Source: Treponema sp. (GTDB lineage Bacteria; Spirochaetota; Spirochaetia; Treponematales; Treponemataceae). From it: DNA of 64,000 nucleotides. The notes beneath the pieces were generated by a model. It ran no database searches and was not told where the DNA came from. It saw only the letters and a program-made list of their open reading frames with translations. The position numbers were made by a program, and so were the translations under genes. Of this stretch, positions 4,791 to 42,720 are shown piece after piece. The stretch covers positions 71 to 64,070 of the forward strand of contig JBQNBL010000013.1 of the NCBI GenBank assembly GCA_052169955.1. Reading direction: 5' to 3'. Within the stretch, counting starts at the first letter, position 1. Each line of letters opens with the position of its first letter.

Positions 4791-5450
4791 TTATGTAAAT
4801 AGCTCTTTTAAAAATGTTTTTATTTCGGTAAATGCGGAATGATTAAAATTCCACTGTCCAGCTTCAGCTCCTAGCCCTAGTCGATTCTTCATAGGAATTT
4901 TTGAAGCAAGGTATACTTGTGATTTAGCTTTATCAACATTAAAAGATTTATTATTTTTATAAAGATTTTGTAAGCATTCTATATAAATATTCATTTCTTT
5001 ATAACAGCACGTACTTTCAATAGATTTTAAGCACAATGTTTCTAACATACCATTATCTTTATTGTTAGGCATGATAAAAATGCCTATTTTCCTGTTATCA
5101 ATATTTTCTACTATACCAATGCTTTTAGGTGGAGCTATTTCATTTTGATTTAAGTGGTAACATATACTGTCAAAAGCAGCTTTTGCATTATCATCTGCGT
5201 CTCGAATAATTCCTAAGTTTGTTATATTGGAGCAGTCATCGCCAAGATCTTGTTTAATACTTTTAATATGATGAGGAAAATTATTTTTTCCCTCTACTTC
5301 AAGAATTTGTACTCCATCAATACTCATATATTTAAATAGAGTATTAAAAAACTCAATTTCGTCTTTCCCTTCAACTAAAAGTAAAAACTTGCTGGTTATT
5401 TTTATATTAGGTCGAAAACTCTTAGTTTCTTCTTTTTTAGTTTCTTCCAT
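4791..5450 (-). CDS. TOPRIM-like protein (DUF3226/DUF4435-like), putative defence effector
   Basis: LLVEGKDE and IIRDADD match the TOPRIM E..DxD pattern; GMLETLC; start overlaps the ATPase stop (TAATG). Confidence 0.75.
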   Translation of the reverse strand: MEETKKEETKSFRPNIKITSKFLLLVEGKDEIEFFNTLFKYMSIDGVQILEVEGKNNFPHHIKSIKQDLGDDCSNITNLGIIRDADDNAKAAFDSICYHLNQNEIAPPKSIGIVENIDNRKIGIFIMPNNKDNGMLETLCLKSIESTCCYKEMNIYIECLQNLYKNNKSFNVDKAKSQVYLASKIPMKNRLGLGAEAGQWNFNHSAFTEIKTFLKELFT

Positions 5451-6493
5451 TAACGCACCTCATAGTTTTTGCTTATGCCAAAAATTAAATCATCATTGTT
5501 GTAATGGATTATTTTTGCTTTGTCATCTTTTTTTTCTATGCGATACATTGCAATTTCAGCTTTTTTTTCATTCATATTTTCTTGCACAAATATTAATGCC
5601 TTCAATGCTTCATAGGAATGAGTTGTAGCTATAATTTGGACATCCAATTCCTCTGTAAACATGATAATTGCTTTCCACAATACTTCTATACTTGAGTAAT
5701 GAAGTCCATTTTCTATTTCATCTATTAGTAAAACACTTCCCTGCATTTCATACATTGAAGATAAAAGGTGAAGAATCCTTATAATTCCATCTCCCATTAT
5801 ACCTATAGGAAGGAGTTCTTCTTTACCTACATCAAAGTATATTGAATTATCATCTAAAATTTGTATATCAACTAAGTTAGGCTCAATTTGCCTTAAAATA
5901 TCAATAAGTCCCTTTATTTTTTTCTTTTTTATTATCGAATGCAAATTCATCTCATTGATTTTTGAATCTATCCATTTTACATTAAGACTTTCTTTATATG
6001 TTTTAGAAGATTTTATTATATTTTTTTTAAGACTAATATACACATCTTCTTTATCTTTTCCATTACTGCTAAATGAAATTTTAACTCCATCAATTTCATC
6101 AACTTGATTTTGCAATGTTATTTGTTTTGATTTTAATGAATCAAGTGAAACATCAAAAAGATCGATATTTTGCTTTTCATCTTTATAAACTGATATTTTA
6201 GCAGAGCGCTTAGTGCCACTGACATTTCCACTCAGCGTTATAGGTTCTTTTAAATTTAAATCATTAAAAATATACTTAAAATCGCTATCATTTTTTAATC
6301 TTAAACCTCTATAAAGGTTAATGCTATGTAATAAGCTAGGGTTTGACATACCAGAAAGTACAAATATAGCTTCAAGAATTGAAGTTTTTCCAGAATTATT
6401 TTTCCCTACAATCAAATTTATGTCTTTGAGTTCTTTTAATTCTGCCTTATCTATTCCTCTAAAATTCTTGATTTCAAGTTCATTAAATCTCAT
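5450..6493 (-). CDS. ABC-type ATPase (AAA_15/AAA_21-like), putative defence sensor
   Basis: IKNFRGI, Walker A GKNNSGKTS, signature MGDG, Walker B LLIDEIENGLH, H-loop TTHS; no TM partner. Confidence 0.88.
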   Translation of the reverse strand: MRFNELEIKNFRGIDKAELKELKDINLIVGKNNSGKTSILEAIFVLSGMSNPSLLHSINLYRGLRLKNDSDFKYIFNDLNLKEPITLSGNVSGTKRSAKISVYKDEKQNIDLFDVSLDSLKSKQITLQNQVDEIDGVKISFSSNGKDKEDVYISLKKNIIKSSKTYKESLNVKWIDSKINEMNLHSIIKKKKIKGLIDILRQIEPNLVDIQILDDNSIYFDVGKEELLPIGIMGDGIIRILHLLSSMYEMQGSVLLIDEIENGLHYSSIEVLWKAIIMFTEELDVQIIATTHSYEALKALIFVQENMNEKKAEIAMYRIEKKDDKAKIIHYNNDDLIFGISKNYEVR

Positions 6494-9657: not shown

Positions 9658-10203
9658 ATGTTAAAAGAATGTTTTTCCTTATTCTTTGCCTTTTTTAAGG
9701 TTGGAGCTTTCACTTTTGGTGGTGGCATTGCCATGCTTCCAATGTTAAAAAAGTATCTAGTTGAGGAGCTTCATTATATAACAGAAGAAGAAATGCTTGA
9801 TTATTTTGCGATTAGCCAATGTACACCTGGAGTTATTGCAGTGAATGTGGCAACTTTTGTGGGGTATAAAAGAGCTGGAGTTTTAGGAGCTACAATTGCA
9901 ACGCTTGGTGTGGTTTTTCCTTCATTTATAATCATCATCATTTTAGCTAAATTTATTTCTCTTTCTTCTAGTGTTGTATGGTTTCAAAAAGCTGTAAAAG
10001 GAGTAAATGTCGCTGTGGCAACTCTTTTGCTACGAGCTTTTTTTTCTATAAGTAAAAAGACAATAATTGACATAGCAACATTTCTTATCTTTTTAATATC
10101 CTTTATTGCGATTGCATTTTTTAATATCTCAGGTTTTTATGTGATTATTGCAAGTGGGATAGTAGGATATGTTATTATCACAATTAAAGAAAAGAGAAAG
10201 TAG
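9658..10203 (+). CDS. short-chain chromate transporter (CHR) half-protein
   Basis: FFKVGAFTFGGG and SQCTPGVIAVNVATFVGY motifs. Confidence 0.9.
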   Translation: MLKECFSLFFAFFKVGAFTFGGGIAMLPMLKKYLVEELHYITEEEMLDYFAISQCTPGVIAVNVATFVGYKRAGVLGATIATLGVVFPSFIIIIILAKFISLSSSVVWFQKAVKGVNVAVATLLLRAFFSISKKTIIDIATFLIFLISFIAIAFFNISGFYVIIASGIVGYVIITIKEKRK

Positions 10204-10386
10204 GTAGATTTTTTTTACTTACAAAATTTATGAAACAAAATACTTAAAAACTATTTTGAACATTCTTTAGTCCCTCTATCATCATTTTATAAAAGAATTT
10301 GATAAGCACTTTATACAAATTGATACCTTTTTAGTTCCCCTTCTGTTAAGAAGATTCATTGGGAAGCACTCGTATTCACGAGTGCA

Positions 10387-10565
10387 ACATGTGTAACTTT
10401 GCATATGCGAAACTGTACAGTTTACGATAGCTAAATAATACAGTTTCGCATATGCAAACTGTACAGTTTGCAACCCCTAAATAATACAGTTTTGCCCCAG
10501 TACATTAGCTAAGGTACAAGCATAACACTAGCTAATGTACAATTATAACATTAGCTAATGTATGA
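10387..10565. repeat. 23-bp-period bipartite palindrome array, copy 1
   Basis: AAACTGTACAGTTT/AAATAATACAGTTT units at 10410, 10433, 10456, 10479, then TACATTAGCTAATGTA-like units whose central AGCT starts at 10507, 10530, 10553. Confidence 0.9.
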
Positions 10566-10927
10566 TAATGGCATTTCTTAATTAATATCTTTTTGTGTTG
10601 TTGATGGGAGTTAAGTTTTTGGGAAGTGGAGAGGTTGGAATGTTGCTTTTTCATGGGGAGCATTTTAGCATTTTTTTTGATTTTTGTCCTTGCAAGGCTG
10701 CTCTATTTTTTCTGAAAGAAAAATTTGAGGAAAATACTTTATAGAGGAGTGGTGAGAGAAGATAAAGTGCGCATTCAGGGAGTACAAAAGGCACCAGATT
10801 ATAGCTTTCAACTACATTATAAAAATACAATGATACTGGCAATTTTATCGAAAAAAAAAACTATACTTGATAGTTAGGTAAAAAAATGCTACCCTTAAAA
10901 TGTATACTATATTTTAAGGACGCTGTT

Positions 10928-11149
10928 ATGGACTATTTTGCAGTTTATAAAGAAAAGAAAAACATATTAAAGGTTCGTAAAGCAATGGTTAAATATGCTT
11001 TAGAGCATGGCATGAAGCCTGCAGCACGTGAGTTTAAGACTACAGTTAAGACAGTTAAAAAATGGGTTAAAAGGTTTAGAGAAGATGCTGAAAATGGACT
11101 TATAAATAGGAAGCAAACTTCAAAAAATGATGATAAGGGGGAAAAATAG
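10928..11149 (+). CDS. stand-alone helix-turn-helix protein resembling the N-terminal HTH of IS481/IS630-type transposases
   Basis: HGMKPAAREFKTTVKTVKKWVKRF..GL; AAGGA RBS before ATG 10928; no DDE domain follows. Confidence 0.65.
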   Translation: MDYFAVYKEKKNILKVRKAMVKYALEHGMKPAAREFKTTVKTVKKWVKRFREDAENGLINRKQTSKNDDKGEK

Positions 11150-12130: not shown

Positions 12131-12997
12131 ATGAATTGCAAAAAAGTATATATATTGGTTTTATCATTGATTTTTTCGTCAAGTGTTTTTGCATTTGACA
12201 ATGGTTTTTCATTGAGTATTATGGCATATCCTACTGCAACACTCACAATGCCACACATTAGCGATAAAGATATGGCATATCTAGGTGGAAATGGTATGAA
12301 GGGAATGCTAGGCTATGTTATAACAGGTTCTGCAGAACTTACATATCTTTTTGATTCTGTCAGATATTTTGGATATCAAGATGCCTCCATATTTTCAGGA
12401 CTTGGTCTTACAGGTTACTTTGGTGTAGGTCAAGGTTTTTCAGGCCAAATATCAGGACAACATAACGATACAGTTGGAGATATTAATGTTTATTGTCGCG
12501 TTTATATGAAAGTGACAATGAATATGGGAGCAAAGCTTAAAACTTTCCTATTTAATAATAGAATGTCAGTTAATTTTGGTTTAGGCTTAGACATGCTTTT
12601 GGACCCACATCCAACATACGAACTTACTACTAATTTATCCAATGAAGACGTTGATAAATTAAAGCGTGAGGCTAATTTAGATTTTTCTAATGAAGTGGGG
12701 ACGCTTTTAATTACTGATGAAATGATGAGAAAGATGAATCCTGTAGGTTATGTATTTGCTTTTGGACTTGAATATTATCAACCTATAGCTTCTCATATGA
12801 AATTAACATTAGGTGGCTTTTTATCTTATACAGTGTATAAACCAAAATATGTTAGCTTGCCACAAAAGCTTGTTGAAGCTGCAAAAAAAGGTGCTGAAGC
12901 AGAAGGTAGGCAACTTGATCTTACAAAACCTATAAATAGTTTTTACATGAATGCCTTAAATTTTGGGCTTTCTGTAGGGTTGGTTTTTGATGTTTAA
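12131..12997 (+). CDS. putative outer-membrane beta-barrel protein
   Basis: SPase I signal (SSSVFA/FDN), Gly/aromatic amphipathic strands, terminal strand FGLSVGLVFDV; GAGGA RBS. Confidence 0.7.
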   Translation: MNCKKVYILVLSLIFSSSVFAFDNGFSLSIMAYPTATLTMPHISDKDMAYLGGNGMKGMLGYVITGSAELTYLFDSVRYFGYQDASIFSGLGLTGYFGVGQGFSGQISGQHNDTVGDINVYCRVYMKVTMNMGAKLKTFLFNNRMSVNFGLGLDMLLDPHPTYELTTNLSNEDVDKLKREANLDFSNEVGTLLITDEMMRKMNPVGYVFAFGLEYYQPIASHMKLTLGGFLSYTVYKPKYVSLPQKLVEAAKKGAEAEGRQLDLTKPINSFYMNALNFGLSVGLVFDV

Positions 12998-13046
12998 CTT
13001 TTATAAATCTTCTAAGACGAATTCTTTACTCTTAAGGAGGTATGAT

Positions 13047-15893
13047 ATGCGTTTTATTAAATTTTTAATTATTACATATTTATTAACAATTATTTCGTGT
13101 TCTCCATCACTTGGAGCTTCTTGGTATGCAAAAACAGGTGGAAAAAATAGTGGAATTTCTATGTATGTTACAAGCATAAAAGTCTTAAATCATGATGTTA
13201 CTGTAAATGATCCTGATTACAGAGCTATAGAAGGTGATAAAGTGAGGAGCTTTGCAAAAGCTAAAAGGTTTTCAATTACCGTGCCACATACTGTTAGTTC
13301 AATAGATGCTGACTCTATTAAAATCGAAGCCTACGAAGACTATAAAAAGCAAAAGCCACTAAAAATTAGTTTGGAGATTGAAGGGGATTTGGTTCCTTTA
13401 GTTCAAGGAGAAGCTGTTTCTGTTATATTAAGAGTTAAAGATAATGCTGGTAAGTATGATGTAGAACAAAAATTTATTTCTGTTACAAGGGAAGTATCAG
13501 ATAATTCTGAAGTTCCATCTGAGCCTGAACCAGAAGACCCAAATGAAGTTGACCCTCCTTCTTTAGAAAATCCTATTGATGAAAATGGTAATAAGAAATT
13601 TAAAGTTAAAATTAATACAAAAGAAGAAAAAGTTGATCCATTTGATTATTATGGAAAAGATTTTATTTTTCCTGCAAGTCGCTTTGATGGTTGGATATTA
13701 AACATGACTAGTATGACATCTGAAAATGTTGCCTCATATGCTTTTAAGGAAGGTAAGTGGCAAGGTAGCCCTCTTTCTTGTATAGGTGAAGATGTAGGCC
13801 AAGGACAGATGAACCATACGTGGAACTTGAAGTATTATAAATATAAAAACCAAGAAGAAAGATGGAAGGAGCATGGAGGTTATGTTCCTTTTATAGATGA
13901 AAAAGAAAAAAAGAGACGAGAACGTTTTATCTTTTTTAGATTTACTGGTAGTGCTTCTATGGGGATACAGCTCGATAATTCAATGTTTTGTGTGGATACG
14001 CATACGAAATTTTTGTTTTATTACAGTGATCCTGCTAATATAAGTGGTGTGGGTGTTCCATCTAATTGGAAAGACTATGAAGAAGCTAGTAAAGATTATC
14101 ATAAGTATTTTGAAAAACCTTTTTATTTAACAGATCCAGTAGGTTATGTTAAAGAGAATGGAGAGTGTGTAATTTATAGTTGGTGTAAGGAACACATAAA
14201 GGCTAACAATTATACTGCAACTTTAAATCCTTCTTATGTTAGGCAAGCTTCAAGAAAACTTGGTGGAAAGGGATATTCTCCATATCGAGATGAAAAAATA
14301 AAGAAAACTAAAGAAAGAATTGTTGAAGAAAATCCTGAATACACTGTAGAAAAACCTGTTATAACAGGACAATCAGGTTCTTTGTATTTGTCTATTGATA
14401 GCCCTGAGCAAGCTATAATGAGTGTTACAGTGAAAAAAGCTCCTGAAAATGAAGAGTTGTCATTTCAATGGTATAAAAACGCTACAAACTCAAAAGAAGG
14501 TGGTGAACTAATTAATGGAGCTATAACAGCAGAGTACACAATGCCAAAAGAAGTTATTGATGTGTATTGCTATTGTGTTGTAACAAACAAAAATACAAAA
14601 AATGGGAAAGAAGCTAGAAGTATCTCTCAACCTATTAAGGTGAGAATTGCACAAAGCAATGCAGATTTAAAAATTGATGCAGAGATTCCTATCATCATAA
14701 AGCATCCTAAGTCTTCAAAACATTCTTTTGTTGAAGGAAGAAATGTAAGTATATCTTTGAATGTTGAAGTGAGTAAGCCAAAAGATAAAGGTGTTTTGAC
14801 ATATCAATGGTTTGAAAGTGAAAATGAAACAACAGAAAATGGAACAAAGATAGAGAATGCTAAAGATAAGGTCTACAATGCTGAGCTTTCTGGTTCAGGT
14901 GTTAAATACTATTATTGCTGTGTAACAAACACAAATGATAAGGCAACAGGTGAAAAAGCTACCTCAGTTTTTAGTGCCGTAGCAAAGATTGAGATAGAGC
15001 AATTGTATGAGCTTACTTTTGGTTGTGTTGGAGAAGGTTCTCTTACTGTGTTTGGAGGTGAAGACGGAACAAAAACTGTGAGAAATAGTTCTGAAGAAAA
15101 GATTAAAGTTAAGCTCGGAACTGACTTAGTTTTTATTGCAAAGCCCAATAAGGGATGGGAAATTGAAAAATGGGAAGGCAAAGCTACGATTTCTGAAGGG
15201 GACATAAATACTGCACAGATGAAAATTGAAAAAGCTGAAGATGTAGAGGGGAATGTTGTTGTAAACTTTAAAAAGATACCGAAGAAAGGTGTTATTGGAA
15301 TTAGTGAGGTGATGATTCAAAATTTATCCTTAGGAGGTTTGTGTACAACTTGGACGGTACAAGGGTCAAAAGTTGATTATGCATATTTTGATTTTGATGT
15401 TTCAACTTATTTTAAAGATGATAATAACGAAGAATTTAAACAACTTTTTTCTTCTAAAGGAAATGGTAAAGATTTATATACGTATGAAAAAGATAGAATT
15501 AAATCAATGGTATATTCCGATTCTAAAGACGCAAAAGATGAAAAAATATCATTTTTTAATAGAAAACCTTCGTTAAAATTGAGCTTAAAACTTGTAAAAA
15601 CAGATAGGGGAGCTTTTTGGAAAGTAACTAATGAGCAAATTATTTCTCAAAAAGGAGATAATGAAAATATCAATGGAGATATCGAATTTGAATATGATGA
15701 ATTAAAAGATTGCTGGCACCTTAAGAGCAAAAAAGCAGATTATAATATTGATAAGGTCTCAATTGTTTTTGATGAAGGTTTTACTCTAAAGCGTGGACAA
15801 GAAAAGCCTTTTGCCGTAACTTATGAGGTTAATAATCCTGCAAATCATGCTAAAGGTAATGTGAAAGTAGTCTACACATTGCTTTGGGAATAA
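13047..15893 (+). CDS. large lipoprotein: unnamed shared domain + two Ig-like repeats + B-repeat-like domain
   Basis: AAGGAGG RBS before ATG 13047; lipobox LLTIISC; two repeats L(S/T)(F/Y)QW(Y/F)...YxYCxVTN; FIAKPNKGWEIEKW module. Confidence 0.8.
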   Translation: MRFIKFLIITYLLTIISCSPSLGASWYAKTGGKNSGISMYVTSIKVLNHDVTVNDPDYRAIEGDKVRSFAKAKRFSITVPHTVSSIDADSIKIEAYEDYKKQKPLKISLEIEGDLVPLVQGEAVSVILRVKDNAGKYDVEQKFISVTREVSDNSEVPSEPEPEDPNEVDPPSLENPIDENGNKKFKVKINTKEEKVDPFDYYGKDFIFPASRFDGWILNMTSMTSENVASYAFKEGKWQGSPLSCIGEDVGQGQMNHTWNLKYYKYKNQEERWKEHGGYVPFIDEKEKKRRERFIFFRFTGSASMGIQLDNSMFCVDTHTKFLFYYSDPANISGVGVPSNWKDYEEASKDYHKYFEKPFYLTDPVGYVKENGECVIYSWCKEHIKANNYTATLNPSYVRQASRKLGGKGYSPYRDEKIKKTKERIVEENPEYTVEKPVITGQSGSLYLSIDSPEQAIMSVTVKKAPENEELSFQWYKNATNSKEGGELINGAITAEYTMPKEVIDVYCYCVVTNKNTKNGKEARSISQPIKVRIAQSNADLKIDAEIPIIIKHPKSSKHSFVEGRNVSISLNVEVSKPKDKGVLTYQWFESENETTENGTKIENAKDKVYNAELSGSGVKYYYCCVTNTNDKATGEKATSVFSAVAKIEIEQLYELTFGCVGEGSLTVFGGEDGTKTVRNSSEEKIKVKLGTDLVFIAKPNKGWEIEKWEGKATISEGDINTAQMKIEKAEDVEGNVVVNFKKIPKKGVIGISEVMIQNLSLGGLCTTWTVQGSKVDYAYFDFDVSTYFKDDNNEEFKQLFSSKGNGKDLYTYEKDRIKSMVYSDSKDAKDEKISFFNRKPSLKLSLKLVKTDRGAFWKVTNEQIISQKGDNENINGDIEFEYDELKDCWHLKSKKADYNIDKVSIVFDEGFTLKRGQEKPFAVTYEVNNPANHAKGNVKVVYTLLWE

Positions 15894-15906
15894 ATGACAA
15901 AAAACT

Positions 15907-15934
15907 TTAAGGATGTTCTTGTGAGCATCCTTAA
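15907..15934 (+). other. intercistronic stem-loop without U-tract
   Basis: TTAAGGATGTTC-TTGT-GAGCATCCTTAA. Confidence 0.55.
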
Positions 15935-15948
15935 GGCTATTTAGATAT

Positions 15949-16803
15949 ATGAAAAAAATATTTTCTCTAATTTTCTTTGTGTTATTTGCTTTAGGTTCTA
16001 ATATTTTGTCGTATGCTGTTGATAGTTCTAATTTGCAGGCGACAATCCACATGTTAAAAATCTTGCCAACAAAAACGGGTTCTGCACCTGTGCTTGAAAT
16101 CCGTTTTGATTCAAAATATTCTTGGGCTTCTTGCCCTGTCCAAACAATTAAATTAAAAGACGGCAGTGAATTAAAATGGGGACGAGAAGGAAAAACATAT
16201 AAATATACAGAGGACATGGTTAAAGGTAGCCATGTAGCTTTTGGTAATTATAATCACATTTATGACGTAACGTATTATAAATGTGAAAAAGTTCATCCTT
16301 GTGAAGTGCCTTTGTATGATGATGAAAGAGAAGCAAAAAAGATAGAAAGATTTGTTTTTTTTCGCTTTACTGCAACTGCTGCTAAAGGTTCTAGTTTTTT
16401 TCAAAAAGAATTAGATAACTTTATGGTAGCTTTAGACCTTGAAACCAATCTTCTTTTCACTTATGGAGCTCCTAGTGATTATGAAGCAATAATAGGGGGC
16501 AACTTTATTCCACTTAAATGGCTTCCTTATGAAATACATCCTAATACTATTTCAGCTCAATTAAAGTTTTATCAATATGACCCAATAGGTTATGTAAAAA
16601 ATAGCTGGGATGTTGAAAATGGAGATGTCAAGACAAATGTGGTTTTATATGAGTGGTGGAATGAATCTGTTAGAGCAGGTTCTTCGTATAAAACTGTTAA
16701 AGAAAAACGCTTTATGCCACAGCTTTCAAGAAATGCTAGCTCTAATTGTCGTTTACGAGATGCTTTAGTTCCTATTGCCTCACCTTATAGGAATGGAATA
16801 TAA
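15949..16803 (+). CDS. secreted protein, paralogous to the internal domain of the upstream lipoprotein
   Basis: Signal peptide without lipobox Cys; shared motifs ERFVFFRFT, LDNFM, FYQYDPIGYVK, SPYR. Confidence 0.8.
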   Translation: MKKIFSLIFFVLFALGSNILSYAVDSSNLQATIHMLKILPTKTGSAPVLEIRFDSKYSWASCPVQTIKLKDGSELKWGREGKTYKYTEDMVKGSHVAFGNYNHIYDVTYYKCEKVHPCEVPLYDDEREAKKIERFVFFRFTATAAKGSSFFQKELDNFMVALDLETNLLFTYGAPSDYEAIIGGNFIPLKWLPYEIHPNTISAQLKFYQYDPIGYVKNSWDVENGDVKTNVVLYEWWNESVRAGSSYKTVKEKRFMPQLSRNASSNCRLRDALVPIASPYRNGI

Positions 16804-17912: not shown

Positions 17913-20759
17913 ATGAAAAATATGATTAAGTTTATGTTTTTGTTGTCTATTTTTTTACTTTTTTCTTGTAAAGATCAAAATAGAAATGAAAGTATTGGTA
18001 ATGCTGACTTAAAGCTATTGAGAGTGTATTATGCTGGTGAGATTATATTAAATAGAAATAATCCAAATGAAACAGAGACTGTTACTACTAAGGATATTAT
18101 TTCTAATGAGCATATGTTAAGGATTTCTGTTGAAGCAAAATCAGAAACGGCAAAGGTTTATTTTGATAGTGATAGTATTTCTTCAGTAAAAAAGGTATAC
18201 CAATCTATACCACTGAATGATAAGGTTAGTATTAAAGTTGAAGATGGTGCAGGTTCTTCAAAAGTAACAAAAATATATGTAATTAATGTAGTTGAAGGTG
18301 GAAATGACAAAATAAGTGGAGAGTTAAAACTACTGAAGGCGTCTTGTGGAGATGATGTTATTGTACACAAAACTAGTGTTAATGATGTGGAAGAAGTTAG
18401 CACAAAAGGAGCTATATCTCCTCAATATAAATTAAAGATAGAAGTAGCCCCAAGATCTAAAACAGCAAAGATTTATTTTGATGATGAGACAGTTCCAAGA
18501 CTTAATAAGATATATGATAGAACACCTAATCATAATAAAGTTAAAATTAAAGTTGAAGATGGTGAAGGTGCTTCAAAGATAGAAAAAGAATACACACTAG
18601 ATATTAAAGAAGGCGCTAACACCCTAAATGCACAGTTAAAAATGCTTAAAATCTTTTTTGATGGTACATTGGTGTTAAATAAAGAAAATGTAGATGATGT
18701 TGAAAGCTTAACTATTTATGAAAACATCACTAATGATAACAAACTAAAAGTGCAAGTTAAGCTAAAGTCTCTTACAGCAAAGGTTTTCTTTGATGGAGAT
18801 TCTTCTCATGCACTTGATAAAACTTATGTAGCTAGTCCGAATGCTAATAAAATTATAATCAAAGTGGAAGATGAAGGGAACAGCCCCGGTAGTATACCTA
18901 AGCAAACAAAGATATATACTGTTAATGTGATAGAAGATGTTTCCAGCGGAATAGTACCAAATGATTCGATTAAATGTAATGTGTCAAGCTTTGTTGGTGG
19001 CACTAATATTTCAGGTTCGACTGTTGATGTATTTAAAGCTGGTAAAGATGTAAAGATTACTTCTGGTACAACAGATGTTGACGGCAACGTCTCTTTTAAG
19101 TTGGCTAGAGGTAGATATTATGACTTTGTAGTGAATAAAGCAGGTTTTGCTTCTTCTCGTGTTGAAAATGTGTATGTGAAAAATGGCACTGGAGTTCAAC
19201 TTTTACCTATAGTCCAAAGAAAAGGAATTGTTGGAAAAAAATCTATAGCACCTCGTATAGTTAAAATAGAACATTTTGTGCGTGCGACTGAAAATAGCAC
19301 TAAAATGTTGGAGCTTGAGGATGTGGTAAATAATTATGAGCTTAATAGCAGTAAGGAAAATAGAAGCTTTGGTGGCTTTTTAGTTACTGTTGCTTCTGAT
19401 TCAGGGGAGATTATTCCTGAAAGGATTGGTACGGAATTAAATTATGGAATTGGTATGAATATTGGTGGAAAGTTTAGTACGCAACAATACGAGTCTCATT
19501 ATTTTCCAATTCGAATATCTGAGAATGGGAATACTATCAATAGGGATCCCTCTACAGGCTCTGTTACGCAAAAGATGGCTTTTGATCTAACAAAAGTGAA
19601 TTTTCCTAGTGATGATGATGGAATTATTTATATTATAGCTTATGACATGGCGGGGAACAGGTGTGAAAGGCATCTTAATGTAAAATTAACTCGTGATGAT
19701 GAAATAGAAGATGATGATAGTGTTTTAATAAGTGCTTTTAAGGTGGTGGTTGAACGCTTTACAGGAGAGTTGGGAACTTTCGGGGTAAATAAACATGATG
19801 GTTTTGCTACTTCGTATAAGACGCAAATTGCTTTTGCTTTTAATAAAGATAATGTTAAACTTTCTAGTGTGGATATTTATAGACGTGAATATACAGGTCA
19901 AACTAACATAAACGCTGATTGGCAAAGAGTGGATAGAAGAGTTTTTATATTACCTAGATTAATTAATAAAAAAGGCACATTTTTTAATGAAGCGGATAAT
20001 AGTCTTACTTTAGAGGAAGGAAAGATTTATCAATATAAGATTTTCGCTTATTTGGATGATGGAGGAAAATTAAAGAAGGTGGTATCTTCTGTTGCTACTA
20101 CTAAGGTTTTACCTGCTTTCAATGTTAAGCTCATTTTTCCTTCTCCTAATGAAGAGGTTGAGTTAAACACTATATTACAAAATGGAATGAAGTTTAAAAT
20201 AAGTAATGGGGAGTGTTGGAAAAAAGAAAATGCTGACTATTTTGTTTTTGGTGTATTGCTACTTGATGTTGAGCATTCAGGTGCTGAAGGAGATGTAAGC
20301 AAGGACAATATACAAAAAAAAGGAGCTCGATTTGCTTCTCGTTTAAGATATAACTTTAATAAAACAGGTAATGAAGTTTTGGAAGTGGGGGATGTTTCTA
20401 ATAATTGGCATACAATAACAGGTGATTCCTCTGATCTTTTTGAATATAATGCTGGGGAGATAACACTTAAAAAAGCATTTTTTGAAAATGGTGCTAATAA
20501 TTTGATAGAAGGAAAGAAATTAAGTGAAGTTTTAAAAGTTGGCGAGGTGTATTATTGGGATGTGCAAGATTGGGGTAAGAATGCATTGCTTGTAAAAGAT
20601 GATTCTCCTGCGTATTTTATGAAAGAGTGGAAGTTAAAAGATTCACAAACAGGAGATGAACTTCAAGGTCAAGGTAAGATTTCATTTGCAGTTTCTGCCG
20701 GTAATTTGTTAAAAGGAGCCAATGCATTAAATGGGCGTGCTTTATTTACAATAAAATGA
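17913..20759 (+). CDS. PrcA-like (dentilisin-complex subunit-like) lipoprotein with three N-terminal ~105-aa repeats
   Basis: Lipobox LLFSC; C-terminal ~600 aa with YDF..K.G.ASS, AYDMAGNRCE, DNSLTLEEGKIYQYK and ADYFVFGVLLLD, recalling treponemal PrcA. Confidence 0.65.
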   Translation: MKNMIKFMFLLSIFLLFSCKDQNRNESIGNADLKLLRVYYAGEIILNRNNPNETETVTTKDIISNEHMLRISVEAKSETAKVYFDSDSISSVKKVYQSIPLNDKVSIKVEDGAGSSKVTKIYVINVVEGGNDKISGELKLLKASCGDDVIVHKTSVNDVEEVSTKGAISPQYKLKIEVAPRSKTAKIYFDDETVPRLNKIYDRTPNHNKVKIKVEDGEGASKIEKEYTLDIKEGANTLNAQLKMLKIFFDGTLVLNKENVDDVESLTIYENITNDNKLKVQVKLKSLTAKVFFDGDSSHALDKTYVASPNANKIIIKVEDEGNSPGSIPKQTKIYTVNVIEDVSSGIVPNDSIKCNVSSFVGGTNISGSTVDVFKAGKDVKITSGTTDVDGNVSFKLARGRYYDFVVNKAGFASSRVENVYVKNGTGVQLLPIVQRKGIVGKKSIAPRIVKIEHFVRATENSTKMLELEDVVNNYELNSSKENRSFGGFLVTVASDSGEIIPERIGTELNYGIGMNIGGKFSTQQYESHYFPIRISENGNTINRDPSTGSVTQKMAFDLTKVNFPSDDDGIIYIIAYDMAGNRCERHLNVKLTRDDEIEDDDSVLISAFKVVVERFTGELGTFGVNKHDGFATSYKTQIAFAFNKDNVKLSSVDIYRREYTGQTNINADWQRVDRRVFILPRLINKKGTFFNEADNSLTLEEGKIYQYKIFAYLDDGGKLKKVVSSVATTKVLPAFNVKLIFPSPNEEVELNTILQNGMKFKISNGECWKKENADYFVFGVLLLDVEHSGAEGDVSKDNIQKKGARFASRLRYNFNKTGNEVLEVGDVSNNWHTITGDSSDLFEYNAGEITLKKAFFENGANNLIEGKKLSEVLKVGEVYYWDVQDWGKNALLVKDDSPAYFMKEWKLKDSQTGDELQGQGKISFAVSAGNLLKGANALNGRALFTIK
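18009..18938 (+). repeat. three tandem ~105-aa beta-sandwich-like protein repeats
   Basis: LKLL/LKML starts at 18009, 18324, 18636; each has KS.TAK(V/I)(Y/F)FD...K(V/I).IKVED...K.Y. Confidence 0.85.
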
Positions 20760-39066: not shown

Positions 39067-42000
39067 ATGAAAAAGCTTATATTTATTCTTACGATATCTT
39101 TTATAGTGTTTATTTCTTGCAAAGAAAACGGTTTTCTAGAGACGCAAGAAAATTATGGAACAGTTATTTTTGATTTAACAGGTAGTTCTAATTTAAGGTC
39201 TATTGACTCATCGACTGGACTTCCTAAGTTAGAAGATTCTGAAATGAATATACTTGTGGAAAGCAATGGAAATAGAACTGAAGAAAAACAAATTGGAAAG
39301 TTAGATAAAAAGCAATATAAGAAAACTTTTCTTGTTGGAAGTAAAATAAAAATTACTGCTGTTGTTATGACAGATGGGAGTAAATGGAAGGGAACTGTTG
39401 AGCATATTGTCACATCTGGCAATAATTATTTAAATATTAAACTAAAAAAAGCTGCTTTTTCACTAGAACCTTTGAAGTTTAAACTTTCTAAGCTTGGAAA
39501 TAAAGGTAAGTTTGAACTTGGTTTTTTTAAAAATGGAAAATCTATTAACTATTTTTTTAATGAAGAAGTTTCAGGAACATACACAAGCATGAATGAGATA
39601 CCTTTGTTTTGTAGAGATCAGGTTGGACGCACTTATGTGGTTTACAATGATAGCTCATCATCTAGTGCTTTACACTTTGAACGGTATACAAGTGAAGGAA
39701 ATAAGGATGCTTCATTTGTAAGCCCCAGTTCTAGCTTTGGTTCACAAGGTAGTGTTGAAAATATTTGTTCAGACCATAAAACTGGGAATATTTTTTATTC
39801 GTATAAAAAAGGCGGTGTTTATGACTATTTTGTTGCTTTACTAAAAGAAGGCGAATCTGCCATAAAAGATATAACACCAAGTTCTTTTGTTTATAACATT
39901 CAATCGATGGCAGTTTATAGTAACATCATTTCTATTATAGAGAAAAGTAATGATGATAAATTACATTTGTATAAATTTAATGGCGAAAATAAAGAAATTT
40001 CAATAATTGATACGAAAGATTTAACTGAATTATTGAAGGTGAAGATAAAAGATGATCCGTCAGCTATCTTATCAAAAGCCAAAATCGTAGATTGCTATAT
40101 GAATGATAAGAATATCTATCTTCTTTATGGTTGCAACAGTTCCTATTCTGACTATATTTCTGTTGGTGGAATCTTGAAAGTTAGCTATATTGAAGAAAGG
40201 GGAACACTAAAACTTGGAGAGCCTATAAAACTTGTAGGTATGAAAGAATATACCTTTGATGATCTTCATATTATTAATGTGAAAGATGAGAGAAAAGAGC
40301 TTTATGGACCTCGACGTTTTGTAGGTGTGGATGAAGATGTTTTATACATTGCAGACGATGGCGTTGTATATGGATATGAGGCGGGAACTCCAAAGGTAAG
40401 AGAAAACAAAAATAGACTAGTTAAGTTTAACTTAAAGAGTGAAAAAATCTCTATTGTGGAAAAAGAAGACAAAATAGAAACATGGATGCCTGAAACAAAG
40501 TCATTTAGCAAAACTAATTTTACTTTGTTCTTCAGTCGTAAGGAAGAGCATGGTAATAAAGTTGCTAAAATAAAGATTTATGATGGGAAGAAGTTTGCAA
40601 AGTTTGGAACTCAAGATGTTTTAACTGTGGAAAAACCTGATAGTATGCTACTTTATACATTTGATTCTTCAGGTAATTTTTATGTAAGAGATAAGAATAC
40701 TACCAATGTAGATATATTAATAAAATATTATCCATCTGAAGAGCAAGATGATATTGTATATGAGAAAGATAGTAATTTTAATAATATTGCCTTAAAAGAT
40801 GTAGATGCTTCCAATCCTATTGCTTCATTATATTATGATGAGGTGAAAGGAAATCTATATTATACATCGAATGGAAATTTGTATAAATTAGAGGGCGCGG
40901 AATGGAAGAAAATAACTAAAGGTATTTATGACTTTTCATCACATATGGCTATTTATGATGAGGCAATCTGGGTATATGATAAAGATAGTAAGAGTGTAAA
41001 AAAACTGCTCATAAAAGGTTTGAATTTAGAGGATGGAGGAACGAGTTTTACCGTTCCTTTCAACACGGTTGTAAGTTTTTCAATATACAAAGGTGTTTTA
41101 TACTTTTTGTATATTGATAGAGCTAAAAAACTCTATGCTTCAGCTTCAAAAATTAGTGATGTTAGTTTCAAAAAAACTGAAGCTCTTTTCACGCTAAGCC
41201 CTAGCCTTAGCTTACTAAATGAAATAAGACCTATAGGTTTTGATAAGGAAACAGATGAGTTGAAGTTCTTTTTCGACGAAGTGAAAGAAGACTATGATGG
41301 TAGAATTGAATCCAGTGTGGATAAATATATTTCACTTAAATATAGTGATTCACAGCTTTCGGCAAAACTAGAAAATCTTCCTTCTGAAGCTAATGCTACT
41401 TGGTATGAAAATGAAGTAGCTTGGCAAGGTGCTAGTGATGCTATAATGTTATGGAAAAAAACTAACCCAAATGGAGTAACAAAATATTATGCTGTAGACA
41501 ATGTAAAAGACTCACTTAACTCAATTCCGTCTCTTATGAGTAGTACTACAGGTTCTACTCTATATACTGTATATGACAAATTTTGTTATGATCAGTTTGG
41601 TAATTTATACGTACTAATTGAAAAAAGTCCTGATTATTATGTTGTTCGTTTTGAATTGACGGAAGATAAGAATTATAACCTCAATCATTTAGGTAGTAAG
41701 ATTAGCGATGATACATTGGGTGCAAAGTTTAAAGTGAGTGAGCAGGTAGCAGGTAATATTTTTGAGCCTGAAAACTTTATTATGGCAGTGTATGCAGATA
41801 GTGCTACATCAGGCACACTATATTATAGATTTTTTGATGGCACTAACAAAATAAGGATAAATACGAAGAGTATTTCTGGTGGTAAATTTGATAGTGAAGC
41901 TAAGCGTAATTGGTTAGGATATGGTGCCGGCGAAATAGAGGCGGAATATACAGATTCAGGGGCAAAAATTGAGCGTCAATTTGTGGCAATGGCTGCAAAT

Positions 42001-42720
42001 AAAGATGGTCTTTTTATTGCACAAAAAGAGTTGGAATATGTGATGCCAGCTAATCAAAGGTATTACAAAAACTACAACATAGAAATTAGAAAATATCTAC
42101 TTCATAATACTAATTATACAGAACCTAATGGGAAAATAGATATAGTGGGGTCTTCCAACAACAGGATTCCTACAGAAATGTTTAATGACTATGATATTAC
42201 CAGCGGTTTAAAAAATGCAAATGCTGGTTGGGATATTTATGTAAGAGAAACTATTTCTGATATGTATGCTTATAATGGTGTTTTGTATGCACTTTCTTAT
42301 AAGCAAGTTGGAGGAGAAGCTTTTAATACAGAAACTTCAGGTGGCACTAAAACTTTGAGTAAAATGTCTGTTTCTGGTAATTTATTGAAAGTAGGAAAGA
42401 CTACTCTTGATTTTACTGGTGGATTTACTCCTCTTCATAGCTCAAGTGCAGAACTTAAAGAAAGTGGAAAATTTGCACCGCGTCATATTATTGGCATTCT
42501 TCCCAATCAACTGGTTGTGGCCTCTGATGGTTATTATGGCTTTACAAATGAGCAAAATAAAAGAAAAGTAACCAATTATAATAACATTTATTTTTTCAAT
42601 TTAAATGGTAAAGACCAGCTTGGTGTTAAAAATGAAGAAAATAAAAATGCCTATTTTAATCTTGAATATAAAGAAGAGGAGGAAGCTGATCTTAGTAAAA
42701 ACTGGGAATTAGTGAATTAA
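39067..42720 (+). CDS. large treponemal-type lipoprotein with about three repeated beta-rich modules
   Basis: Lipobox VFISC; repeats FCRDQVGRTY/YTFDSSGNFY/FCYDQFGNLY and YGPRRFVG..LYIADDG/FAPRHIIG..LVVASDG. Confidence 0.8.
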   Translation: MKKLIFILTISFIVFISCKENGFLETQENYGTVIFDLTGSSNLRSIDSSTGLPKLEDSEMNILVESNGNRTEEKQIGKLDKKQYKKTFLVGSKIKITAVVMTDGSKWKGTVEHIVTSGNNYLNIKLKKAAFSLEPLKFKLSKLGNKGKFELGFFKNGKSINYFFNEEVSGTYTSMNEIPLFCRDQVGRTYVVYNDSSSSSALHFERYTSEGNKDASFVSPSSSFGSQGSVENICSDHKTGNIFYSYKKGGVYDYFVALLKEGESAIKDITPSSFVYNIQSMAVYSNIISIIEKSNDDKLHLYKFNGENKEISIIDTKDLTELLKVKIKDDPSAILSKAKIVDCYMNDKNIYLLYGCNSSYSDYISVGGILKVSYIEERGTLKLGEPIKLVGMKEYTFDDLHIINVKDERKELYGPRRFVGVDEDVLYIADDGVVYGYEAGTPKVRENKNRLVKFNLKSEKISIVEKEDKIETWMPETKSFSKTNFTLFFSRKEEHGNKVAKIKIYDGKKFAKFGTQDVLTVEKPDSMLLYTFDSSGNFYVRDKNTTNVDILIKYYPSEEQDDIVYEKDSNFNNIALKDVDASNPIASLYYDEVKGNLYYTSNGNLYKLEGAEWKKITKGIYDFSSHMAIYDEAIWVYDKDSKSVKKLLIKGLNLEDGGTSFTVPFNTVVSFSIYKGVLYFLYIDRAKKLYASASKISDVSFKKTEALFTLSPSLSLLNEIRPIGFDKETDELKFFFDEVKEDYDGRIESSVDKYISLKYSDSQLSAKLENLPSEANATWYENEVAWQGASDAIMLWKKTNPNGVTKYYAVDNVKDSLNSIPSLMSSTTGSTLYTVYDKFCYDQFGNLYVLIEKSPDYYVVRFELTEDKNYNLNHLGSKISDDTLGAKFKVSEQVAGNIFEPENFIMAVYADSATSGTLYYRFFDGTNKIRINTKSISGGKFDSEAKRNWLGYGAGEIEAEYTDSGAKIERQFVAMAANKDGLFIAQKELEYVMPANQRYYKNYNIEIRKYLLHNTNYTEPNGKIDIVGSSNNRIPTEMFNDYDITSGLKNANAGWDIYVRETISDMYAYNGVLYALSYKQVGGEAFNTETSGGTKTLSKMSVSGNLLKVGKTTLDFTGGFTPLHSSSAELKESGKFAPRHIIGILPNQLVVASDGYYGFTNEQNKRKVTNYNNIYFFNLNGKDQLGVKNEENKNAYFNLEYKEEEEADLSKNWELVN

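Follow-up and report, generated by a model that had tools for sequence, protein, structure and literature searches.

The outer-membrane barrel gene and the neighbouring lipoprotein gene described here are tightly linked, and they form a real and conserved pair that is undescribed as a system in the literature searched (subscription journals lay outside its scope), where no paper on the pair or on the domain of its lipoprotein was found. Most likely, the pair is a dedicated system that holds variable proteins on the cell surface, through a contact that we infer between the two proteins. More specifically, the eight-stranded barrel may dock and display its cognate surface lipoprotein in a way that resembles the working of the unrelated PorP/SprF barrels, a reading to which we give nearly even chances. 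The evidence from the present analysis consists of model folds, gene linkage and domain architecture, and that for the expression of orthologues was taken from published papers.

The 64,000-nucleotide stretch of DNA analysed (the window) belongs to a 2.2-Mb, 94.6% complete treponeme genome, and the names of the relatives' proteins place T. denticola in the same genus. Three genes, all in the same orientation, are summarized with their features in Table 1; the ORF positions agree with the preliminary description, which had placed three co-oriented genes between a membrane-protein gene and queA. Their GC and GC3 are the same as those of the flanking housekeeping genes, and each gene is single-copy in its own genome, the shared domain aside. 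The ATG of the lipoprotein gene is preceded by AAGGAGG at 13034-13040, and the ORF finder had instead chosen a TTG start at 12987. A promoter scan of the window gave 31 sites against 33 expected by chance.

Table 1. Features of the three-gene block and its surroundings (positions in the window)
Feature	Position	Strand	Remarks
Membrane-protein ORF			274 aa; borders the three-gene block on one side, queA on the other
Barrel gene	12131..12997	+	288 aa; signal peptide about 12131-12193
Lipoprotein gene	13047..15893	+	948 aa from ATG; ORF and lipobox; orthologue T. denticola TDE2566
Lipoprotein signal peptide	13047..13100	+	ends at Cys18; Cys in 37/37 aligned partners
Aromatic motif directly after the lipid Cys	13098..13136	+	about 12 residues; clade-specific variants in relatives
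Optional ~110-aa insert	13161..13487	+	alignment, tblastn; 0 to 3 copies in relatives
Acidic Pro-rich linker	13491..13590	+	sequence
Shared TP0629-like domain, lipoprotein copy	13653..14312	+	residues 203-422; HMM boundaries, alignment
Two tandem Ig-like repeats	14346..14999	+	
InlB B-repeat-like unit, one	15003..15284	+	PF18998 E 0.0011, below cut-off; above it in relatives
C-terminal ~200-aa domain	15288..15890	+	variable in the family; weak similarity to relatives' C-termini
14-bp RNA hairpin in the lipoprotein/stand-alone gap	15905..15936	+	-19.9 kcal/mol, z -4.58
Stand-alone domain protein	15949..16803	+	284 aa; cleavable signal peptide about 15949-16017; without lipobox

The product of the first gene is predicted to fold as an eight-stranded outer-membrane barrel of the OmpW/NspA type. 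The AlphaFold2 model, built with 41 homologues (pLDDT 92.5), has eight long strands, most of them with alternating hydrophobic and polar residues, short turns on one side (2-4 residues, periplasmic) and, on the opposite side, long loops that contain five short helices, and its mature chain of 267 residues contains no periplasmic, TPR or POTRA domain. The nearest solved structures were OmpW (Z 13.5, rmsd 3.1, 172 aligned residues), a Legionella Dot/Icm porin (Z 13.5), NspA (13.2) and the OprF barrel (12.6), with OprG and AlkL also among the best neighbours. The model and these structural matches thus bear out the earlier suggestion of a beta-barrel. By sequence, the barrel belongs to no Pfam or NCBIfam family, the Pfam families OmpW, OMP_b-brl and DUF2715 included, and the 41 aligned members matched none in Pfam either. 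PDB sequence searches with the barrel and domain profiles gave no match at E<=10, the barrel profile did not match the T. pallidum DUF2715 loci (best E 0.06), and no barrel was found in viral contigs. OmpW, OprG, NspA, Ail and T. pallidum TP0126/0479/0698/0733 have the same eight-stranded outer-membrane fold, whereas the window barrel differs from OmpW-type proteins in its identity of about 10%, which also holds for its nearest solved structures, in about 100 extra residues in structured loops and in its fixed lipoprotein partner. In an alignment of relatives, the long outer loops hold many invariant residues, and in 16 Brachyspira-type pairs the mean identity was 81% for the barrel, 73% for the aromatic motif and 44% for the domain; the higher conservation of the barrel relative to the domain, together with the invariant residues of the outer loops, is what one would predict for a platform that serves one constant partner.

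The second and third genes encode proteins that share a domain of about 220 aa. The preliminary description had noted a common domain of about 200 aa, and the two proteins are indeed 35% identical over 177 aa (E 1e-22), with a local score of 223 between the two copies, where 1000 shuffles reached 61 at most. The motifs listed in that description are colinear in both proteins, except that RFD..W is complete only in the lipoprotein, the stand-alone protein retaining just the Trp. The model of the mature stand-alone protein (AlphaFold2 with 115 sequences; pLDDT 94.5, pTM 0.92) is mainly beta. The domain had been left outside any named family, and it stays there: no match was obtained in Pfam or NCBIfam, by Foldseek against the PDB or viral structures (none at E<=0.001 in either), among 48,161 chains (none at Z>=5, best Z 3.6) or, in usable form, in the ESM Atlas. 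These searches with the model suggest that the domain may have a new fold, a missing PDB match being no proof of this. The family is small and sharply bounded: a search of 1.84 billion representatives gave 171 matches at E<=0.001, and 163 of these also pass 1e-10. The 69 named genome loci with the domain among the best 80 of 128 stretches are all from spirochaetes. Most invariant positions are occupied by Trp, Phe, Pro or Gly, with one Arg and two Asp in addition, and no recognisable catalytic motif was seen among those inspected.

Among 401 spirochaete genomes, the barrel was matched in 57 and the domain in 57. Two weak barrel matches outside the two families named below (G161 and G393, E about 1e-4) were dropped as chance, and all 55 genomes with a clear barrel also had the domain. 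The matches fall within Treponemataceae and a second family, identified by its protein names as Brachyspiraceae, in which 37 of the 38 genomes searched had the domain/barrel; the occurrence of the domain in Brachyspira, suggested in the preliminary description, was found in this way by the profile search. None of 312 genomes outside these families had the domain. In a sample of 251 Treponemataceae genomes that are at least 90% complete, which overlaps the sample of 401, we found the barrel in 46, the domain in 50, both in 46 and neither in 201. Of the four genomes with the domain only, G102 and G075 have the stand-alone form and the other two are fragmented assemblies. We give no p-value for the linkage because kin genomes are not independent samples.

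The genes are also adjacent. In 36 of 40 regions taken around 64 listed barrel matches, the next gene after the barrel encodes a domain-bearing lipoprotein, typically 10-50 nt downstream, and the other four regions hold second barrel copies (three partnerless, one near a contig end). Among 61 metagenome loci, 47 have the pair, four have a lipoprotein cut before the domain, eight end at the barrel and two are partnerless. The neighbourhood of domain and barrel, which the preliminary description had proposed to follow by HMM through spirochaete genomes, is upheld by these counts. The linkage could instead reflect co-regulation, and inheritance as one cassette, of two co-expressed surface proteins that make no contact. 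We consider this improbable: orphan barrels and barrel-distant lipoproteins do exist (in G414 the two genes lie about 425 kb apart), and all matches fall in two families, which implies few independent events, but the pair has been kept at about 35% barrel identity over Treponemataceae and Brachyspiraceae while its flanking genes differ by lineage, none of the well-assembled genomes without the barrel among the 251 Treponemataceae showed a long form of the lipoprotein, and both genes were duplicated jointly in L105 and L156, where each lipoprotein has its own barrel.

Some genomes and loci have other arrangements. The partner lipoprotein is truncated in G449, and the barrel is split over two frames in G421 and G462. 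Frame-split barrels with the domain still downstream were observed in three single-contig treponeme genomes (L145:2870-3753, L146:2583-3462 and L148:3669-4286), and such barrels may possibly result from sequencing error, decay or phase variation. An apparent barrel-domain fusion in L132 was rejected, being two genes joined across an N gap. Partnerless second barrels on the opposite strand (L051:4599-5462 and L052:4282-5145) lie amid phage-like ORFs, with a GH19 enzyme in L052, and resemble phage morons. In nine Brachyspira-type regions, a conserved lipoprotein of about 125 aa without the domain sits within or after the array of lipoproteins behind the barrel (L045:7529-7900, L047:7143-7517, L056:10311-10682 and six more), and it is possibly a further component of the system. 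Short Brachyspira lipoproteins that have the domain and lack the aromatic motif, with no barrel near (L135:5014-5787, L140:5151-5900 and L129:5981-6761), offer natural controls for the role of this motif.

The lipoprotein consists, in order, of the lipid Cys, the aromatic motif, a low-complexity linker, 0-3 inserts, the shared domain and a C-terminal part. The aromatic motif, the insert of about 110 aa, which is beta-sandwich-like as judged from its sequence pattern, the C-terminal domain of about 200 aa and the 14-bp hairpin behind the gene had escaped the preliminary description. The two Ig-like repeats that it had placed after the shared domain scored 90 against each other, compared with a shuffle maximum of 72, and Ig_3 matches below the cut-off occur in orthologues, in agreement with this assignment. 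The B-repeat-like stalk was recovered in part: a B-repeat-like unit is present, as a single unit and not a row of units. For the T. denticola lipoprotein, the ESM Atlas gave nothing beyond generic Ig/B-repeat leads. Across the family the C-terminal parts range from 0 to over 800 residues and fall into two BLAST groups of 38 and 22, and in Brachyspira-type genomes up to six lipoproteins with variable C-termini stand in an array behind one barrel. A conserved N-terminal module, exchangeable C-termini and such arrays are adhesin-like, and the C-terminal domain of the window lipoprotein is a candidate ligand-binding tip.

In the aromatic motif, Tyr at +9 is present in all 37 aligned partners, and among 185 ORFs of this genome with a lipobox-like start, one shows the pattern of the motif. 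The motif is a candidate signal for barrel binding or sorting. In 71 non-redundant pairs, co-variation with the barrel gave a rho of 0.57 for the motif and 0.73 for the domain, with a mean of 0.46 and a maximum of 0.73 for 13-column windows of the domain. The idea that the motif tracks the barrel better than the domain does was rejected, as the partial rho was 0.33 for the motif vs 0.62 for the domain.

The motif also bears on a different role, in which the barrel would be the lipoprotein's own route through the outer membrane, either Slam-like or as an RcsF-OmpA-like tether threading during BAM assembly, with the motif or domain as the export signal. Such a role is consistent with the strict gene pairing, with an invariant aromatic motif that lies close to the lipid (within about 12 residues) and ahead of a flexible linker, and with one barrel cluster in which nine of nine partners, spread over three domain clusters, have the same motif. 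Moreover, spirochaetes lack Slam and perhaps use unknown machinery, and RcsF forms complexes with OmpA-type barrels (PMC7857515). We nevertheless find it distinctly unlikely, since eight-stranded barrels have narrow channels (PMC8407342), the model contains no TPR or POTRA module, Borrelia flips its surface lipoproteins by an LptD homologue (according to a preprint), and domain-only proteins exist without a barrel, which indicates that the domain is more than an export tag. Profile searches of the own genome for LptD_2 (a single LptD profile), SlipAM and PorP_SprF were blank, two of them, PorP_SprF included, being without a positive control.

Similar points weaken the secretion pore of the preliminary description, which had been drawn by analogy with Slam/type XI or two-partner systems. 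As in Slam/T11SS, the barrel gene has both lipidated and non-lipidated partners next to it, with one domain in common. Slam is a 14-stranded barrel with TPRs (PMC7857515), whereas the window barrel has eight strands and no N-terminal helical/TPR domain; a secretion pore for folded cargo is therefore unlikely, and the stand-alone protein has been kept in genomes in which the profile search gave no barrel. Neither the barrel nor its 41 aligned members matched DUF560/SlipAM. Slam cargo ends in an eight-stranded soluble barrel (preprint 10.1101/2024.09.26.615229), whereas the shared domain here is N-terminal and, judged from its model, of another fold. No TbpB-like chain was listed among the structural matches of the shared-domain model. 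The preliminary description also named a second option, a receptor that has adhesin partners; in that form, or as an anchor, the barrel suits the data better than as a secretion pore.

TpsB is a 16-stranded Omp85 barrel with POTRA domains, and the window barrel differs from it in its eight strands, its short mature chain (267 residues) and its lack of a periplasmic domain. In PorP/SprF systems with type B CTD cargo, the genes are adjacent, there is one barrel per cargo, and the barrel has 14 strands. PorP/SprF barrels of the Bacteroidota T9SS bind and anchor their cognate surface proteins (PMC9143113). The likeness would thus be a dedicated outer-membrane barrel for a cognate surface protein, the binding being proposed here by analogy; the differences are the eight strands of the window barrel and the nature of the cargo, here a lipoprotein whose conserved module is N-terminal, whereas theirs has a C-terminal signal, and neither the barrel nor its 41 members matched PF11751 (PorP/SprF). 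SusC and BtuB are 22-stranded TonB-dependent barrels with a plug, and SusCD and BtuBG have lipoprotein lids. Both these and RcsF-OmpA resemble our pair in that a barrel and a lipoprotein form one unit; the window barrel differs from SusCD/BtuBG in its eight strands, and RcsF is a stress sensor on general porins with no dedicated neighbour.

As a miniature of SusCD, the pair could also serve in ligand capture and uptake, the domain passing a small, perhaps hydrophobic, host nutrient to an OmpW/OprG-type channel and the stand-alone form acting as a soluble binder. OmpW, OprG and AlkL are among the best structural neighbours of the barrel, and a preprint modelled BP951000_RS01590 of B. pilosicoli as an OprG-like channel and proposed hydrophobic uptake (10.1101/2025.01.03.631275). 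This protein is probably the orthologous barrel: it likewise has eight strands and loops with short strands and helices, and of the three variable residues cited for it two match the window barrel and the third is a conservative change. The section of the preprint on this protein treats it as a lone channel and makes no mention of the adjacent lipoproteins or the domain. Minimal pairs without a passenger (L154 and L142, and also G401) would suit uptake, as would T. pallidum TP0629, which retains 15 of the 16 conserved domain positions without a barrel. We think uptake rather unlikely, because most members have long variable C-termini (a crude pattern classed 94 of 150 family representatives as long lipoproteins), the regions examined show no transporter or catabolic gene that accompanies the pair, and a common eight-stranded fold at about 10% identity to OmpW/OprG shows no function.

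Published data indicate that orthologues of the lipoprotein are expressed. The G284 lipoprotein is identical to a deposited T. denticola protein, and three published TDE2566 peptides map to it at their reported positions. TDE2566 was recovered in the outer-membrane detergent fraction of a MOSP pull-down, the list of which is also rich in periplasmic binding lipoproteins; the pull-down files have no entry for the barrel orthologue or the neighbouring locus tags (PMC5643300). The T. medium barrel locus tag is absent from PMC7171239. The B. pilosicoli orthologue of the lipoprotein, BP951000_0328, was detected in published proteomics: in the pellet-wash fractions the barrel had 2 spectra and two lipoproteins had 248 and 9, and in the trypsin-shaving fraction all three had 0 spectra (PMC4955376). 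Cytoplasmic proteins were abundant in the samples, which were frozen pellets, and the authors regarded wash-exclusive proteins as possibly artefactual (PMC4955376). The lack of spectra in the shaving fraction counts against surface display of the lipoprotein and gives no support for exposure. Together with the periplasmic lipoproteins of the T. denticola list, it would agree with a periplasmic scaffold. Such a scaffold seems very unlikely to us, as the periplasmic turns of the barrel have only 2-4 residues and its conserved elaborations sit in the long loops, and as highly variable, arrayed C-termini better suit an exposed protein.

We therefore return to a pair for anchoring and display, the reading that best accommodates a conserved platform on the outside, exchangeable tips and the presence of a single barrel for each lipoprotein or array. 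We counted in its favour the co-occurrence, the adjacency with changing flanks, the joint duplication and the presence of TDE2566 in the outer-membrane fraction, and against it the shaving result, the missing entry for the barrel orthologue in the T. denticola pull-down files, the separation in G414, the three partnerless barrels and the result on motif tracking. The passenger-less minimal pairs indicate that display of a tip is not universal. A complex prediction with the barrel and lipoprotein residues 18-425 scored 0.00 in two runs without folded controls, and it weighs neither way. As proposed, the barrel would be inserted in the outer membrane with its conserved loops outward as a docking platform for the cognate lipoprotein, and the lipoprotein would reach the surface via a general route. 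Its lipid would help to hold it there, as would the barrel by way of the new domain, of the aromatic N-terminal motif or of both. The variable C-terminal part, with its Ig and B-repeat stalk and its tip, would project as an adhesin or ligand binder.

The stand-alone protein is an accessory and no required cargo. It is an orthologue of T. denticola AAS13082 and a homologue of T. pallidum TP0629, which consists of the shared domain (profile E 3e-34); the retention of the conserved positions in TP0629 without a barrel indicates that the domain has a function of its own. In the tree, stand-alone proteins form their own well-supported clade, and non-lipidated forms of the domain arose at least twice. 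The gene follows the lipoprotein gene in nine of nine same-genus regions, is located apart from the barrel in T. vincentii and T. lecithinolyticum, and is retained in G102 (as TP0629) and G075, in neither of which a barrel was found by profile. No shuffle (0/200) reached the stability of the 14-bp hairpin that separates the two genes; hairpins were present in the same gap in all seven relatives folded (without a shuffle control), four of them with U runs after, and the hairpin may be terminator-like or stabilising. The separation by a hairpin, the position away from the barrel in several treponemes and the retention without a barrel speak against the released cargo of the barrel that the preliminary description had seen in this protein, which would rather be an old, separate paralogue of the domain, independent of the barrel and probably either located in the periplasm or loosely secreted. 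A single table row of PMC3012094 mentions TP0629; according to that paper, a deletion truncates it in one pertenue strain. In two different treponemes, the stand-alone gene was observed near ORFs that we take to be sbcC/sbcD-like (L073:2599-9384 and L091:7851-13807).

Other observations were made in the window. The ORF at 17913-20759 (+) encodes a lipoprotein of the PrcA (dentilisin complex) family (NF033597, 224 bits, cut-off 200), an expanded family with about ten paralogous loci on other contigs. A gene pair at 4791-6493 (-) encodes an AAA_15/AAA_21 ATPase and a DUF3226 protein with a weak OLD-like TOPRIM match, possibly a defence or toxin-antitoxin module. The region 9658-11149 contains a lone short chromate-transporter gene, with no second-half ORF of at least 80 aa after it, followed by a minus-strand HTH_28 ORF of 87 aa that is probably what remains of an insertion sequence. 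The 1217-aa ORF at 39067-42720 (+) has no Pfam or NCBIfam match.

For the question of how lipoproteins are placed on the surface of treponemes and Brachyspira, the pair is a concrete test case in T. denticola (TDE2566 and two neighbours), where gene deletion is feasible. It is conceivable, if fairly unlikely, that the pair represents a previously unrecognised spirochaete pathway of lipoprotein display, in which an eight-stranded barrel reads the aromatic signal, carries or threads the tether and presents the new-fold domain and the tips. If so, the barrel would be the smallest known for such a task, and the pathway would go some way towards explaining the surface exposure of lipoproteins in Treponema and Brachyspira, which lack Slam. 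The present results bring together, in one family with a probable new fold, dozens of proteins that are called 'hypothetical' in oral and gut pathogens, and give T. pallidum TP0629 its first family. The conserved barrel with variable, arrayed partners in nearly all Brachyspiraceae genomes searched (37/38) is relevant to adhesion studies and to the choice of vaccine antigens.
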